Source: Candidatus Zixiibacteriota bacterium
GTDB taxonomy: Bacteria; Zixibacteria; MSB-5A5; JAABVY01
Assembly (NCBI GenBank): GCA_014728145.1
Contig: WJMC01000141.1
Span: 1-50,727 of the forward strand
Length of the DNA: 50,727 bases
Reading direction: 5' to 3'
Under the pieces are notes generated by a model. That model was not told the DNA's origin. It worked only from the letters and a program-made list of their open reading frames with translations, and ran no database searches. Below, one piece after another: positions 21,008 to 29,319 of this stretch. How positions within the stretch are numbered: position 1 is the first letter of the stretch; every line of letters begins with the position of its first letter. The position numbers were made by a program, and so were the translations under genes.

Positions 21008-22528
21008 TCAAGCGGGAGCACTGCTCTTTTTGGCAGTTTCAGCCTGAGATTTTTCCTGCTCTTTTTTGGCTTCCTCGACGGCCTCTTTACGTTGCTGGGC
21101 TTCGAAAGTGGCCTTATCGTACGGCCCCGCCATGATGTTATCATCATAGTATTCGAACAGGGTCGGGCCTCGTTCGGACTGGAGTTCCTTGTACTTGATC
21201 CCGATATGGGCCTGGACTCCGGGAAAGGCCTGTAACTCGGCAACGATTTTGGCCTTGATCAGCGACTTGAATTTCTCCTTGAGTTCTATTTTGCGCTGTT
21301 TGAGAGCCTCGAGCTGTTGCGGAAGATTACGCTTGAAGGCGTCCAGTTTATTGAAGACTTCGACCTTACTCTTGGGAAGCTTATTCGACAGTTTAAGTTT
21401 ATAGAGATCGACTAATGCCTCCTTGACACGACTGCCATCGGCCTGCAAACGCTCCATCTCGCCGTCGATATCCTTGATTTCCTTCATGAGCTTGGCGTCA
21501 TAGGCGACCTTTAGAACGGTCTTGGTACCAGCATCTGCGCCCAGAACCGGTGCTTTTATCAGCTTGCGCGCCGTGCTCGTACCGCCGACAATTTTACCCT
21601 TCTGACCAAGCACATTAATCTCGTTTTTGGCATGAACATGGGCATTGACCGCTTCCCCGCCGATAGTGACATCGCCATCGGCATTGATAGTCTGATTGAG
21701 AATATACTTAATTGTGACATTGCCGGCAGAATTTATTACGCCGTCGCCACGGCCGATGAATCCGCCTCGTATGACAACTTCACCCTTACAATTGATCTCG
21801 GCATCCTCGACATTACCCTCGACCTCGAGATCACCCTCGACTTCGACCTTGAAATCGGATTTAATATCTTCAGTAACTTTCAACGTCCCCTTGCAGGTAA
21901 TGTTGCCGGTCGACTGATCAATTGAGCCGTTTATTGTAGTTACGGGCTGTACACTTACGACCGATCCGGTACTGACAATTGTTCCGGCCTCAGTGGCAGA
22001 CAGAGTCAGGCCATCGGCTGACAGTTCTGTGTTGGAGCCCTTCGAAATTTTGGAATCCTTCCCAGGCTTGGCGGCCAGCTCAGCGCCCAGGACAGATTTA
22101 CCCGGAGTTCCTTTTGTTGCAGGAGTCTTTTTGACCAGCACCTGGCCAGGTTCGGCGTTCTGCAGAAAATCCATGTCGCGGTAGTCGATACGACCGTCTT
22201 CACCCTCTTTGGGCGCGATCTTGCGGTCTTTTTCAAAGCAGTATTCGATCGTGGCATCGACTCCGTGCACCGGCGCCTTACCCTCGGCGACAACACGTTT
22301 TTCATCGTACTGTTTGGCCAATACCATCTCATCGATGGCTTCCTGCTTGATACCGAAATTCACATTTGCCGCCGTCAGCGCTCTCATGACATCACTCGAA
22401 TCAATCGTCAAATCAGCCAGTTCCGCTGAACGCAACTCTACTGTGGCCGAGAGCTTATCGGAAGCGACGGCTACTTTGATGCCCCTTTTTAGTCGTTCTT
22501 CCTTGGTCAGTTCTTCTGAATTACCCAT
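21008..22528 (-). CDS. FapA/DUF342-family protein
   Basis: About 500 aa. Central beta-helix-like repeats ('GDLEVEGNVEDAEINCKGEVVIRGGFIGRGDGVINSAGNVTIKY...'). Then 'GKIVGGTSTARKLIKAPVLGADAGTKTVLKVAYD' followed by a coiled coil, which is the usual DUF342 layout. Confidence 0.7.
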   Translation of the reverse strand: MGNSEELTKEERLKRGIKVAVASDKLSATVELRSAELADLTIDSSDVMRALTAANVNFGIKQEAIDEMVLAKQYDEKRVVAEGKAPVHGVDATIEYCFEKDRKIAPKEGEDGRIDYRDMDFLQNAEPGQVLVKKTPATKGTPGKSVLGAELAAKPGKDSKISKGSNTELSADGLTLSATEAGTIVSTGSVVSVQPVTTINGSIDQSTGNITCKGTLKVTEDIKSDFKVEVEGDLEVEGNVEDAEINCKGEVVIRGGFIGRGDGVINSAGNVTIKYILNQTINADGDVTIGGEAVNAHVHAKNEINVLGQKGKIVGGTSTARKLIKAPVLGADAGTKTVLKVAYDAKLMKEIKDIDGEMERLQADGSRVKEALVDLYKLKLSNKLPKSKVEVFNKLDAFKRNLPQQLEALKQRKIELKEKFKSLIKAKIVAELQAFPGVQAHIGIKYKELQSERGPTLFEYYDDNIMAGPYDKATFEAQQRKEAVEEAKKEQEKSQAETAKKSSAPA

Positions 22529-22532
22529 AACA

Positions 22533-22940
22533 TCACTTCACGGTTGATCCCTCGCGCGAACGCGAAGAAATGATTCTCCAGTATGCTCTTTCGACCACCA
22601 TAGTGATCTCAAAGCTCTTAAACGGTTTGGTTATGTATTCATCCGCGCCGAGTAAGAGAGCGTCTCTGACCGTGTAGGCGTCCCCGAAGGCTGTCATTAC
22701 AATGACTCCTATCTGGGGAGTTTTTTCCTTGATGTGTTTCAGCAGGTCAAAACCGTTCATCTCGGGCATTTTAACATCAGTTATTACTAAATCAACTTTG
22801 CCTTCATCGATTATCTTTAAAGCTTCAGCACCGGAAGACGCTGACAAAATCGAGTAGCCGTCCTTTTCAAGAATCTTGGACAGCAACCCGCGCATCATCT
22901 CCTCATCATCGACAACCAGTATGGTTACTTCCTCTTTCAT
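22533..22940 (-). CDS. single-domain response regulator (CheY-like receiver)
   Basis: 'ILVVDDEEMM', the phospho-acceptor region 'DLVITDVKMPEMNG', 'VIVMTAFGD' and 'EYITKPF'. GGAGG SD site. Confidence 0.85.
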   Translation of the reverse strand: MKEEVTILVVDDEEMMRGLLSKILEKDGYSILSASSGAEALKIIDEGKVDLVITDVKMPEMNGFDLLKHIKEKTPQIGVIVMTAFGDAYTVRDALLLGADEYITKPFKSFEITMVVERAYWRIISSRSREGSTVK

Positions 22941-22962
22941 CTAACCTCCGGAATTGTTGAAT

Positions 22963-27355: not shown

Positions 27356-27365
27356 ACCTGTCCTC

Positions 27366-28130
27366 CTAAATCAAACCTTTTTGTCGCAACTTAACCTGAT
27401 AGTTAAAAACATATTGCATAAGCTTTTGCTTCTTCTTCAAATCGAACTTCATTAGATCAGCAGGGATCTTTTTCTGGTATTCCGGTTTAACAATCTTGGC
27501 TGAATCCTCAAGCGGTATAAACTGTACACCGGCTCGGATTCGATCGTCCCTTTCCGCTTCTACCAGCCTCCTGACTATTCCCAAAACTGGATGAGGGATC
27601 CTCATCTCCGCATCAATGAGGGATACTGCAAGAAGATCATCTACCCCCAGCACTTTTTTAGATTCAAACAGTATTCCGGAGGCCGAGAGGTTAATACTTA
27701 TCCCGGAATATTCCTTCAAATCATCGATTTCGTACTCGCCCTCGAGGTACTTTGTCAGGATTATGAAATTTACGCTGAAATCAACATCCACACGGCAGTC
27801 CCCCCGTCTCTGGAGACGGTAGACAGATTTTGGATACCCGGCTATATAGTATCTTCTGCCTTTTTCCGACAGGCTATTGATAATCGATGTTTTAAATCGA
27901 TATGCCCCGTCCTCGCGGAAGATAGTAACCAGAAACGGTTCCATCACATCGAAGGAAGGCTCACCGGCCATCCATATCGGACGATCGATCATAATCCCTT
28001 CCGGACGCATATCCTCCACGCGGGCGGAGTATATACCCTTGCTTTCGTCACTGCCCCACTGGAGCTCAAGGCGTTCCCAGAGTTGCAGTTTGATGTTTTC
28101 CCCTATGGTGCGTGTTTCAAGCGGGCTCAT
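27366..28130 (-). CDS. YcgR-like flagellar-brake type protein (PilZN + PilZ)
   Basis: N-terminal YcgR-like barrel ('LQLWERLELQW...GIYSARVEDMRPEGIMIDRP'), then 'RRGDCRVDV' (RxxxR) and 'GISINLSASGILFES' ([D/N]xSxxG). The ATG at 28130 has GGAGG about 14 nt upstream and overlaps the upstream gene by 14 nt. The track's start at 28292 is rejected. Confidence 0.7.
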   Translation of the reverse strand: MSPLETRTIGENIKLQLWERLELQWGSDESKGIYSARVEDMRPEGIMIDRPIWMAGEPSFDVMEPFLVTIFREDGAYRFKTSIINSLSEKGRRYYIAGYPKSVYRLQRRGDCRVDVDFSVNFIILTKYLEGEYEIDDLKEYSGISINLSASGILFESKKVLGVDDLLAVSLIDAEMRIPHPVLGIVRRLVEAERDDRIRAGVQFIPLEDSAKIVKPEYQKKIPADLMKFDLKKKQKLMQYVFNYQVKLRQKGLI

Positions 28131-29319
28131 TGGCTGTCTGTTTTGCCTCCTGGAGGTTAAGTTTTCCCTGCTCCATAGCCATTTCGAATATCTTGCGCGC
28201 CAGTGCGGTGCGGGATTTATCGCCCTTGTTCTGATGGATATATTCCTGGGCGAGCTTGATGGCTGTATTGAAATATCCTTTGGCTTCATCATGACTGCCG
28301 ATGCGTCGTGAAAGTTCAGCGATCAGGTACACCGCCTGGATAGACTGGTTGCCATGAGAAATTTCACCACCGGTTTCATAAGCGGCCTTGTAATAATCAG
28401 AAGCGGATTTAAGCGCCTCCTGCTCAGATAATGGAACTTCCACCCACATCGATTTGGCTTCACGAAGGAAATTGCGATAAGAATCAAATGACATGAAAGG
28501 TTGATCCATAGGGGAAGCTGAATCCGTATGACTGTTCATGACATCAGTCGATAATCCCAGACTGCCTTTGAAGGTGACCACCGCGCCCTTTTGCTTTTCG
28601 AGGGCGGCCTTCATTTCTTCAAATCCCTTCTGGTATTGCTCCATCAAGCTGGCCCGGTTGTCGCCATCCGGGAAAGAACTGTCATTCATGAAGTTATCTG
28701 TGGCTTTTTTCAAATCCTCAGCTCCGGCTCTGATCTGCTCGTACTGGGATCCCATCCGGTAGATCAAATCCTCGATTCTCATCGCATGACTGGCCAGCTG
28801 GCTGGTATTCTGGCTGGAACCATCCGAAATTTCGCGGAACAGCCAGCCGATCCGGAGAAAATAGCGCCCCAGGTCGAGGTTCGAGAACTTCATATTGAAT
28901 TTTTCGTCGTATATTCCCAACAGGATTTTATTGACAGCTGTCTGAAAAGGATACTTTTCACCATCGAGGTTTTCGCCTAAGAGCTTGATAATATTCTTTT
29001 TACGCTTGACCTCGTTTTGATGTTTTTCCTGCAGTGGTTTTTGTTTGTAGTTACGAAAAGCTGAGTCACTTTTCCAATCCTTGAACTTGGTTGTAAACTC
29101 CTTCGTGAAGTGACACCCTGCGCAGGTTGCCATAAAGAACAAGAGCGGGTTGAACTTCTGATAGTTGGGGTTTTTCCAGGTTCTTTTCTTGGGGCAAAAA
29201 TCGGTATCCCGGCCTTCTTCAATATAAGCTCCCATACGAAGGGTCTTATGCTCGTTTTTACCACCACAGACCGGGCATTCCCATTTCGATAAATATACGG
29301 GTGAGTCATTGCTTTTCAT
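28117..29319 (-). CDS. DUF2225-like zinc-ribbon / TPR-like protein (enlarged, 400 aa)
   Basis: 'WECPVCGG...' and 'FFMATCAGCHFT' form a CxxC...CxxC ribbon. The C-terminal 'AVYLIAELSRRIGSHDEAKGYFNTAI' matches the DUF2225 'YLiGELyRRlG.yeeA..wF..vi' signature as I recall it. An insert of about 150 aa separates the two parts. Confidence 0.6.
   Translation of the reverse strand: MKSNDSPVYLSKWECPVCGGKNEHKTLRMGAYIEEGRDTDFCPKKRTWKNPNYQKFNPLLFFMATCAGCHFTKEFTTKFKDWKSDSAFRNYKQKPLQEKHQNEVKRKKNIIKLLGENLDGEKYPFQTAVNKILLGIYDEKFNMKFSNLDLGRYFLRIGWLFREISDGSSQNTSQLASHAMRIEDLIYRMGSQYEQIRAGAEDLKKATDNFMNDSSFPDGDNRASLMEQYQKGFEEMKAALEKQKGAVVTFKGSLGLSTDVMNSHTDSASPMDQPFMSFDSYRNFLREAKSMWVEVPLSEQEALKSASDYYKAAYETGGEISHGNQSIQAVYLIAELSRRIGSHDEAKGYFNTAIKLAQEYIHQNKGDKSRTALARKIFEMAMEQGKLNLQEAKQTANEPA

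Follow-up and report, generated by a model that had tools for sequence, protein, structure and literature searches.

The flagellar superoperon of the phylum Zixibacteria appears to end in a regulatory tail built in two layers, a flagellum-specific shell and a core that is tied to sigma-28 (FliA), the sigma factor of flagellar genes, a reading to which we assign a probability of roughly 45%. We describe this tail from a contig of Candidatus Zixiibacteriota bacterium (WJMC01000141.1), analysed as one stretch of 50,727 nt (hereafter the window) in which the block in question occupies positions 21008-29319. The block encodes a DUF2225 protein, two PilZ proteins, an exported protein, a GAF-containing histidine kinase homologue, two single-domain receivers (REC1 and REC2), a 117-aa relative of the tip of methyl-accepting chemotaxis proteins (MCPs) that we call p117, a CheB-like protein and FapA. 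The division into shell and core is drawn from what was observed: domain identities, the state of catalytic and binding motifs, synteny across the phylum, the conservation of a promoter, the joint loss of a defined set of genes in a sister lineage and the purifying selection that acts on the genes which this lineage has kept. Zixibacteria are a widespread phylum of sediments and groundwater without cultured members, and the names of the homologues matched by the proteins of the window refer to candidate division Zixibacteria or to GN15.

A gene string characteristic of the phylum

One genome per GTDB species was scanned with an alignment of DUF2225, which yielded 80 loci, nearly all from Zixibacteria and a few otherwise labelled; 86 loci in total were annotated using hidden Markov models (HMMs), with about 20 kb of neighbourhood visible in each genome. 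The gene string that emerges is a hallmark of the phylum Zixibacteria. It runs flhA, flhF, flhG, fliA, p96 (a small hydrophilic protein), DUF2225, two or three PilZ genes, the exported protein, in places a GAF protein, the GAF-HisKA protein, REC1, p117, a gap, a receiver of 138 aa, REC2 and FapA, and the genes downstream of FapA are not conserved. Dozens of species repeat this arrangement of 10-12 genes, with 20-60% protein identity. At 66/66 loci fliA lies beside the string, and the flagellar export genes flhA, flhF and flhG lie upstream in 64 of the 66, which bears out an earlier description of the block as a motility-linked module. The DUF2225 gene was found at 86/86 loci, p117 at 57/57 species loci and the exported protein at 55/57.

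In the window, ten open reading frames (ORFs) fill positions 21008-29319, all on the minus strand and separated by spacers of -14 to +52 nt, with the exception of approximately 107-131 nt between p117 and the CheB-like gene. The second PilZ gene and that of the exported protein overlap by 4 nt, REC1 and p117 by 1 nt. Upstream, Pfam identifies the flagellar superoperon in the order fliK, flgD, flgE, fliL, fliM, fliN, fliO, fliP, fliR, flhB, flhA, flhF, flhG and fliA. The last of these (34081-34845, minus strand; Pfam Sigma70_r2/r3/r4) anchors the module and is overlapped by flhG (34842-35783) over 4 nt. In the Bacillus subtilis fla/che operon, cheB-cheA-cheW-cheC-cheD sit between flhG and the sigma-28 gene; the 4-nt overlap means that this slot is empty in the window.

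The first-pass annotation of this DNA, made by eye from the letters and their translations, had reported the same vacancy, and no che genes were found in the window. It had also recognised in the block a DUF2225 protein, a YcgR-like and a second PilZ protein, an exported protein, a GAF kinase with a degenerate-looking ATPase domain, two CheY-like receivers, an MCP-tip-like protein of 117 aa, a CheB-like protein devoid of a receiver and of the catalytic His and Asp, a sigma-28 promoter in front of the latter, and FapA/DUF342. Such assignments might have failed in HMM searches, but all ten proteins are upheld by HMM, profile or structure tests and the candidate promoter is conserved in relatives, as detailed in the following sections. 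Its picture of a block tightly packed downstream of fliA holds for orientation and spacing within the block but not for contiguity with fliA, as p96 and an ORF of 1452 codons intervene before DUF2225.

A sister lineage without the adjacent flagellar operon

Three or more independent assemblies (L001/L002/L008, L006 and L009) carry, directly before fliA, the gene for ribosomal protein S1, a MiaB-like gene and a 145-aa ORF. The 145-aa ORF (for example L006:2537-2974) aligns to the C-terminal 80-90 residues of FlhG and is a remnant of it. Downstream of fliA this sister lineage retains the transposase-derived gene that also intervenes in the window, DUF2225, one PilZ gene, the kinase homologue, REC1, p117, the sigma-28 promoter and the CheB-like gene, after which the locus continues with DUF512-Der-RlmN as in the window. 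The locus no longer has the flagellar operon, nor does it have p96, the YcgR-like gene, the exported protein, REC2 or FapA. At the level of the locus, a shell specific to the flagellum can thereby be told apart from a core linked to sigma-28.

What remains is maintained. FliA is 80-82% identical to its orthologues, those of the lineage without the adjacent operon included, and between two species of the sister lineage the ratio of nonsynonymous to synonymous substitution rates (dN/dS) is 0.017 for FliA (98% amino acid identity), 0.019 for REC1, 0.064 for the second PilZ protein, 0.066 for DUF2225, 0.071 for p117, 0.081 for the kinase homologue and 0.149 for the CheB-like protein. Every retained gene is thus under purifying selection. 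As the core has outlasted the adjacent flagellar operon, its action cannot be confined to the motor or its placement, and the initial proposal of a system that controls the motor or its polar position is not supported for this part of the block. The founding Zixibacteria genome, RBG-1, has been described as non-flagellated (PMC3903129).

p117, a stand-alone chemoreceptor tip

p117 (23718-24071, minus strand) is a mini-MCP by profile homology to MCP hairpin tips. The copy in the window has no Pfam match by itself, and a database query with the single sequence returned only 2 proteins; a family profile was built from positional orthologues at related loci (35 sequences). Against the PDB this profile matches TM1143 (2ch7/3ja6) at 1.6e-9 over the tip, followed by PcaY, Tsr and Aer. 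The homology centres on the U-turn and on LLALNAAIEAARAG, which is aligned to llALNLAiylAKak of TM1143. Individually, 17 of 59 family members match the MCP signalling domain PF00015, and a Tsr probe recovered p117 orthologues only among the ORFs of the loci. An exhaustive HMMER search of 1.84 billion representative proteins gave 83 matches, of which about 70 are small (mostly 105-170 aa, with a few fragments among them); the next in rank are proteins of about 500-870 aa, and the ten larger matches that were inspected (317-869 aa) are all bona fide MCPs in which the match to p117 falls inside the signalling domain. p117 defines an undescribed protein family; clustering at 90% identity gives over 400 clusters, all annotated as 'hypothetical', and clustering at 50% gives about 70.

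Its members retain LALNxAIxxAK, the most conserved motif of MCP tips, with an invariant Asn. The C-terminal arm of the hairpin has strongly diverged from GRGFAVVAxEVRxLA, and the methylation helices, HAMP domain, transmembrane segments and sensor parts of chemoreceptors are all absent. Within the subclade of the window p117 has diverged fastest of the block proteins (a ratio of 0.53 against 0.65-1.02, taken relative to the divergence among other Zixibacteria). This additional divergence occurs where the downstream neighbour of p117 has been exchanged and is possibly the outcome of co-evolution with that neighbour, with which it is compatible.

An ATP-blind kinase homologue and its receivers

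The 584-aa protein encoded at 24428-26182 (minus strand) combines a possible PAS domain with GAF and HisKA domains identified by Pfam. Its HisKA domain (PF00512, 4.1e-13) carries an intact H-box, HELRNP, that is invariant among the aligned orthologues, and the Pfam scan gave no match to HATPase_c (PF02518) at E<=0.1. Compared with ThkA of Thermotoga maritima (3a0r, matched at 1.7e-18), the N, G1, F and G2 boxes have all been replaced. The same four boxes are missing from 33 of the 35 aligned H-box proteins of the loci, among which the H-box is invariant. Judged by these alignments, the loss of the ATP-binding boxes is ancient and the GAF protein cannot bind ATP; we refer to it as a pseudokinase. 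All four boxes are intact in the H-box proteins at L073:9480-11357, where the kinase occupies the pseudokinase position, and at L082:854-2050, where it is an extra gene upstream of DUF2225, and these cases indicate that the module can recruit a real kinase. Some Zixibacteria (L027 and equivalents) have an additional gene, which precedes that of the GAF-HisKA protein and encodes a GAF protein standing alone.

REC1 (24071-24424, minus strand; Pfam Response_reg 4.4e-23) starts 3 nt after the stop codon of the pseudokinase gene and has an intact acceptor site (DD, D52, T80 and K100). An H-box protein is present at 28 of the 57 species loci and REC1 accompanies it at 28/28; as far as the genomes tell, REC1 is the cognate partner of the pseudokinase. 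REC2 (22533-22940, minus strand; Response_reg 3.4e-33) is CheY-like and conserved throughout the phylum, being the orthologue of the second receiver of distant Zixibacteria (64-65% identity), and likewise retains its acceptor residues. In the alignment of the receivers D11, D12, D55, T83 and K105 are invariant throughout, including in E. coli CheY.

The CheB-like protein and the sigma-28 promoter

The gap downstream of p117 contains the sigma-28-type promoter CTAAGC-N14-GCCGATAA (23622-23649, minus strand), which has one mismatch to TAAA-N15-GCCGATAA and precedes the last three genes of the block. It is conserved in 5/5 loci of the subclade within an otherwise divergent spacer and is the sole such intergenic motif in each 20-kb locus scanned. 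Across the phylum, CCGATA occurs in the equivalent gap at 24 of 62 loci, where about 6% would be estimated by chance. A regular-expression scan found a second sigma-28-like motif, TTAAGC-N15-TCCGATAA (34927-34955, minus strand), which lies within flhG at its 3' end; it precedes the ATG of fliA by about 82 nt, and fliA may be autoregulated through it. One further site with a single mismatch, at 24636-24662 (minus strand) in the 3' part of the GAF-HisKA gene, is probably a chance match because it is coding, the encoded segment is not conserved and there is no equivalent in the loci scanned.

The first gene behind the promoter (22963-23610, minus strand) matches the CheB methylesterase domain (CheB_methylest, PF01339) at 3e-14; its likely start is a TTG at 23586 behind the Shine-Dalgarno sequence AAAGGAAG, in agreement with the starts of its orthologues. 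The family comprises proteins of 207-215 aa that consist of the catalytic domain only and lack the N-terminal receiver. An AlphaFold2 (AF2) model (predicted local distance difference test, pLDDT, 83; predicted TM-score, pTM, 0.82) finds significant Foldseek matches solely among CheB catalytic domains, which make up all of the top nine, with 4.5e-13 for 3sft and TM-scores of 0.67-0.76 to 3sft, 1chd and 1a2o; the possibility that it is a diverged receiver was ruled out on the same grounds. Two of the three catalytic residues are gone. GxSxGGP still has its nucleophile Ser; most members have Gln in place of the His (His in 4/23, Tyr in 1/23), and the Asp loop GMGxDG is missing. A motif that is new in comparison with CheB, MESDFSEPLxxAWxK, is invariant in the family. 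By these residues the protein is probably a non-catalytic pseudoenzyme.

The CheB-like gene, which the first-pass annotation had counted among the parts of the system, is not an ancestral component. The family counts only 23 clusters, is confined to one Zixibacteria subclade (2/57 species loci) and occupies the position at which other Zixibacteria encode the distinct 138-aa receiver.

The last gene of the block encodes FapA (DUF342; 21008-22528, minus strand) with strong matches to both of its domains, FapA_N at 6.8e-46 (156 bits against a cut-off of 27) and FapA at 4.8e-62 (210 bits against 31). A terminator-like hairpin 3' of FapA (20903-20919, minus strand), detected by a consensus scan only, closes the block, and DUF512-Der-RlmN follow.

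Chemotaxis genes and the motor target

Pfam and other scans detected no CheA, CheW or full-length MCP in the 50.7-kb window, and none was found in the approximately 1.5 Mb of sequence flanking the 86 Zixibacteria loci, with some 20 kb covered in each genome. Among the ORFs of all loci a CheW probe from E. coli had no match, a weak negative given that coverage. FliM (43230-44213, minus strand) begins with MAKILSQDEIDALL, the canonical docking peptide for phosphorylated CheY (CheY-P) of the LSQxEIDxLL type. Retention of this peptide together with a local kinase that is blind to ATP implies that an unlinked kinase, possibly CheA, is needed. A system that works in place of the CheA pathway, as the first-pass annotation suggested, is therefore not supported at this coverage. 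FliN (42541-43218) has an acidic, low-complexity N-terminal extension of 140 aa, and a CheC-like domain is absent.

Other genes between fliA and the pseudokinase

p96 (33784-34065, minus strand; 93 aa) is recognised in the window by its family HMM at E 2e-23. It consists of a conserved N-terminal segment of about 35 aa, a charged and disordered middle and a conserved C-terminal peptide (...IDLKA), sits between fliA and DUF2225 at 69 loci and is absent where the flagellar genes are lost. No Pfam family matches it, and an identity with FlgV was ruled out as it has no transmembrane helices.

The adjacent ORF of 1452 aa (29332-33690, minus strand) matches Pfam Transposase_mut at 6.8e-15, over profile positions 140-333 of 379 only. 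A long, charged, low-complexity N-terminal extension precedes a C-terminal core of Mutator/IS256-type transposase origin. Orthologues of 550-1006 aa are found at the same position solely in L001-L009, that is, in this subclade (2/57 species loci). The putative DDE residues are not conserved. With a dN/dS of 0.22 and retention even where the adjacent flagellar operon was deleted, the gene probably represents a domesticated transposase.

DUF2225 (28117-29319, minus strand; 400 aa) matches PF09986 at 1.7e-20 (74 bits against a cut-off of 21). It starts with a four-Cys zinc ribbon (invariant Cys15, Cys18, Cys66 and Cys69) and is helical in its C-terminal part; Pfam and profile-versus-PDB scans of family members yielded nothing usable. 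The YcgR-like protein (27366-28130, minus strand) joins a PilZNR to a PilZ domain (Pfam 1.4e-5 and 4.9e-8); the PilZNR match (PF12945) scores 25.5 bits against a cut-off of 23 and is weak in orthologues. Its motifs RGDCR and NLSASG are both intact in the translation. The ORF as listed extends to 28292, but the true start is likely M55 at 28130 because the orthologues are 252 aa long and show the same overlap of 14 nt. The second PilZ protein (26837-27355, minus strand; Pfam 2.3e-8) is a single domain with intact RRYVR and NISGGG motifs, likewise read in the translation, and it is the PilZ gene that persists in the lineage without the adjacent flagellar operon. Elsewhere in the Zixibacteria there are up to three PilZ proteins, the third and longer one measuring 540 aa in L027, where the extra members of the block, this protein and the stand-alone GAF protein, lie at 14700-15548 and 11950-13572. 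The exported protein (26235-26840, minus strand; 201 aa) carries a Sec-type signal peptide that ends in AFA/TE in the translation; its fold is unassigned, as neither Pfam nor the PDB yielded a relative, scans of family members and profile-versus-PDB searches included. At the far end of the window a T2SSE-family ATPase of the PilB/PilT type (983-2104, minus strand) is a hint that the genome encodes a type IV pilus or a secretion apparatus.

Proposed mechanism and alternatives

The contacts between proteins, the direction of phosphoryl flow and the output of the system are, in the scheme that we infer, as follows. The shell would comprise p96, the YcgR-like PilZ protein, the exported protein, REC2 and FapA, which are lost together with the flagellar genes. 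Cyclic di-GMP (c-di-GMP) bound to the YcgR-like protein would brake the motor, phosphorylated REC2, the best candidate for this role, would dock on the N-terminal peptide of FliM, and FapA may help in assembly or placement. To the core, tied to sigma-28, would belong DUF2225 and the second PilZ protein, the GAF pseudokinase and its partner REC1, the mini-MCP and whichever gene follows the sigma-28 promoter. Within it the protein that combines GAF with a dimerisation and histidine phosphotransfer (DHp) domain has a complete H-E-x-x-N motif and most likely serves as a ligand-gated phosphatase or His-phosphotransferase, similar to ChpT or Spo0B, for REC1, with phosphoryl groups supplied by an unlinked kinase outside the block. 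The hairpin of p117 is most likely an oligomeric adaptor and would bind whatever the next gene downstream encodes, which in most Zixibacteria is a receiver and in this subclade the CheB-fold protein.

This scheme departs from the first-pass annotation, which saw in several members of the block chemotaxis parts that look competent for binding but catalytically dead and which would act by scaffolding. A loss of catalysis agrees with the kinase without its ATP boxes and the CheB-like protein without His and Asp; with the acceptor residues of all receivers and the H-box of the kinase retained, phosphoryl chemistry is more likely than pure scaffolding.

Several observations weigh against the two-layer scheme or parts of it. 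Approximately 25 of the 57 species keep p117 without the pseudokinase and REC1, and the coupling of these parts is thus not obligatory. The AF2 monomer of p117 is weak (pLDDT 61, with predicted helices at 12-38, 46-78 and 89-114), and a PDB fold search with this poor model found no match at E<=0.001. In NCBIfam, REC2 has generic receiver matches, CheY_Halo at 5.7e-24 being one of many, which leaves it a candidate orthologue of CheY. The CheB-like protein, with its nucleophile Ser and MESDFSEPL kept, may remain an enzyme with altered catalysis. Gene loss in the sister lineage, finally, was judged at the locus, that is, within about 20 kb.

Other accounts of the block can be set against the same evidence. 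A chance juxtaposition of two-component and PilZ genes downstream of a flagellar operon is extremely improbable: the variable end of the operon, with no conservation beyond FapA, would fit it, but it is refuted by synteny, the order of 10-12 genes recurring in dozens of species, and opposed by overlapping starts and stops and by the conserved internal sigma-28 promoter. More substantial, although in our estimate unlikely, is the idea that the core (DUF2225, PilZ, pseudokinase-REC1, mini-MCP and CheB-like) mainly controls the activity or regulon of sigma-28, for example as a signal-dependent partner of FliA. The core lies beside fliA at 66/66 loci, a second sigma-28-like motif is found upstream of fliA, and the sister lineage keeps precisely fliA (98% identity, dN/dS 0.017), the core and the sigma-28 promoter. 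Yet Pfam finds an anti-sigma or DNA-binding domain in none of the core proteins, modules such as PilZ, REC and the MCP tip usually belong to the control of motors or arrays, late flagellar genes are also expected beside fliA, and the evidence from the sister lineage comes from the locus and not from whole genomes.

Two further accounts concern the canonical chemotaxis machinery and are, in our view, both distinctly unlikely. In one, Zixibacteria have no CheA, CheW or full MCP and the block stands in for them as a self-contained scaffold, with c-di-GMP and a phosphorelay devoid of receptors steering the motor. The failure to find these proteins in the window and in the flanks of 86 loci, the empty che slot between flhG and fliA and the resemblance of the parts to cut-down che components all favour it; however, the search covered about 20 kb per genome, the local kinase is ATP-blind and the phosphoryl source is thus absent from the block, FliM keeps a CheY-P docking peptide typical of CheA-driven systems, the CheB-like gene is recent and subclade-specific, and the core survives without an adjacent flagellar operon. 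In the other, the mini-MCP and the CheB-like protein modulate canonical arrays encoded elsewhere in the genome, the former as a tip-only cap or poison subunit within trimers of dimers or as a titrator of CheW and CheA, the latter as a non-catalytic receptor binder. The retention of LALNxAIxxAK with its invariant Asn, the complete CheB fold and a FliM peptide that expects CheY-P argue for such a role, but the C-arm of p117 is strongly diverged, p117 offers a CheB-type protein no methylation helices as a binding site and is still present where the adjacent flagellar operon is missing, and the arrays of Zixibacteria are themselves putative. A last and more speculative version, which we regard as quite improbable, is a receptor-less and CheA-less pathway in which the GAF phosphotransferase and the MCP tip would assemble the receivers, one of them replaced by the CheB fold, into a minimal array-like complex that sets both the FliM switch and sigma-28 expression, its core being kept after loss of the flagellum.

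Comparison with known systems

Our literature search turned up nothing specific on chemotaxis or motility in Zixibacteria. Nor did it find a description of stand-alone MCP tips, of a GAF pseudokinase-receiver pair, of this phylum-wide combination, of CheB-fold or transposase-derived additions, or of the persistence of a core after loss of the adjacent operon. What is new here is the combination of parts across the phylum, the MCP-tip family, the ancient pairing of a GAF pseudokinase with a receiver, the additions made in one subclade and the persistence of the core. The sister lineage amounts to a natural deletion experiment that splits the flagellum-specific parts from the sigma-28-linked core, and the block can serve as a marker for motility-related regulation in Zixibacteria and corrects annotations that read 'hypothetical protein'.

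In chemoreceptors the MCP tip normally organises arrays of CheA and CheW. p117 resembles PF00015 at the profile level in the hairpin tip, its 'protein interaction region', but the family measures 107-134 aa, with about four heptads per arm and a third helix, and has no CheA or CheW neighbour; to our knowledge this size is far below that of the smallest known MCP class. It thereby offers a natural minimal system for what the hairpin does alone. The pseudokinase that keeps its His and the CheB fold without His and Asp are, in turn, cases of signalling enzymes that were put to other use. The CheB-like protein shares with CheB (PF01339) the complete fold of the catalytic domain and the nucleophile Ser in GxSxGGP and differs from it by the missing receiver, by the His that is mostly Gln, by the missing Asp loop and by the motif MESDFSEPLxxAWxK. 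ChpT of Caulobacter and Spo0B of Bacillus are histidine phosphotransferases, and DivL is a pseudokinase that lost its His. These proteins and the Zixibacteria pseudokinase have in common a DHp domain followed by a kinase-like domain without ATP-binding residues, and single-domain receivers as partners. The Zixibacteria protein differs by an N-terminal PAS-like and GAF sensor and by a full H-box with the E and N phosphatase residues. Two or three receivers are encoded near it, with REC1 only in the sister lineage.

PilZ proteins that brake the flagellar motor are well known. The YcgR-like protein corresponds to the YcgR/MotI brakes (DgrA, YpfA) in its PilZNR and PilZ domains, in the RxxxR and (D/N)xSxxG motifs and in its flagellar gene context; what sets Zixibacteria apart is that they always add a single-domain PilZ protein (up to three PilZ proteins in all), which is kept without the adjacent flagellar operon. 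DUF2225 offers a likeness at the level of the family: a Leptospira biflexa mutant in the DUF2225 gene LEPBIa0550 shows a motility defect with unchanged morphology (PMC12236494, section 12), and the Zixibacteria protein, of the same Pfam family, has 400 aa and a fixed place downstream of fliA.

The closest overall parallel is the sub-module of sigma-28 and FapA, in some cases with PilZ, of spirochaetes and Bacillota, together with the B. subtilis fla/che operon. Flagellar superoperons in which sigma-28 and FapA are linked to flagellar genes nearby have been described (PMC11607428, section 8). The Zixibacteria block agrees with this sub-module in the run from flhA, flhF and flhG to fliA and on to FapA, in the PilZ genes near flhG and fliA and in late genes placed behind a sigma-28 promoter. 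It differs from it, and from B. subtilis, in the lack of cheB-cheA-cheW-cheC-cheD between flhG and fliA; compared with the sub-module it also has no FlgV-type protein with two transmembrane segments, and it possesses in addition p96, DUF2225, the exported protein, the GAF pseudokinase with its receiver and the mini-MCP.

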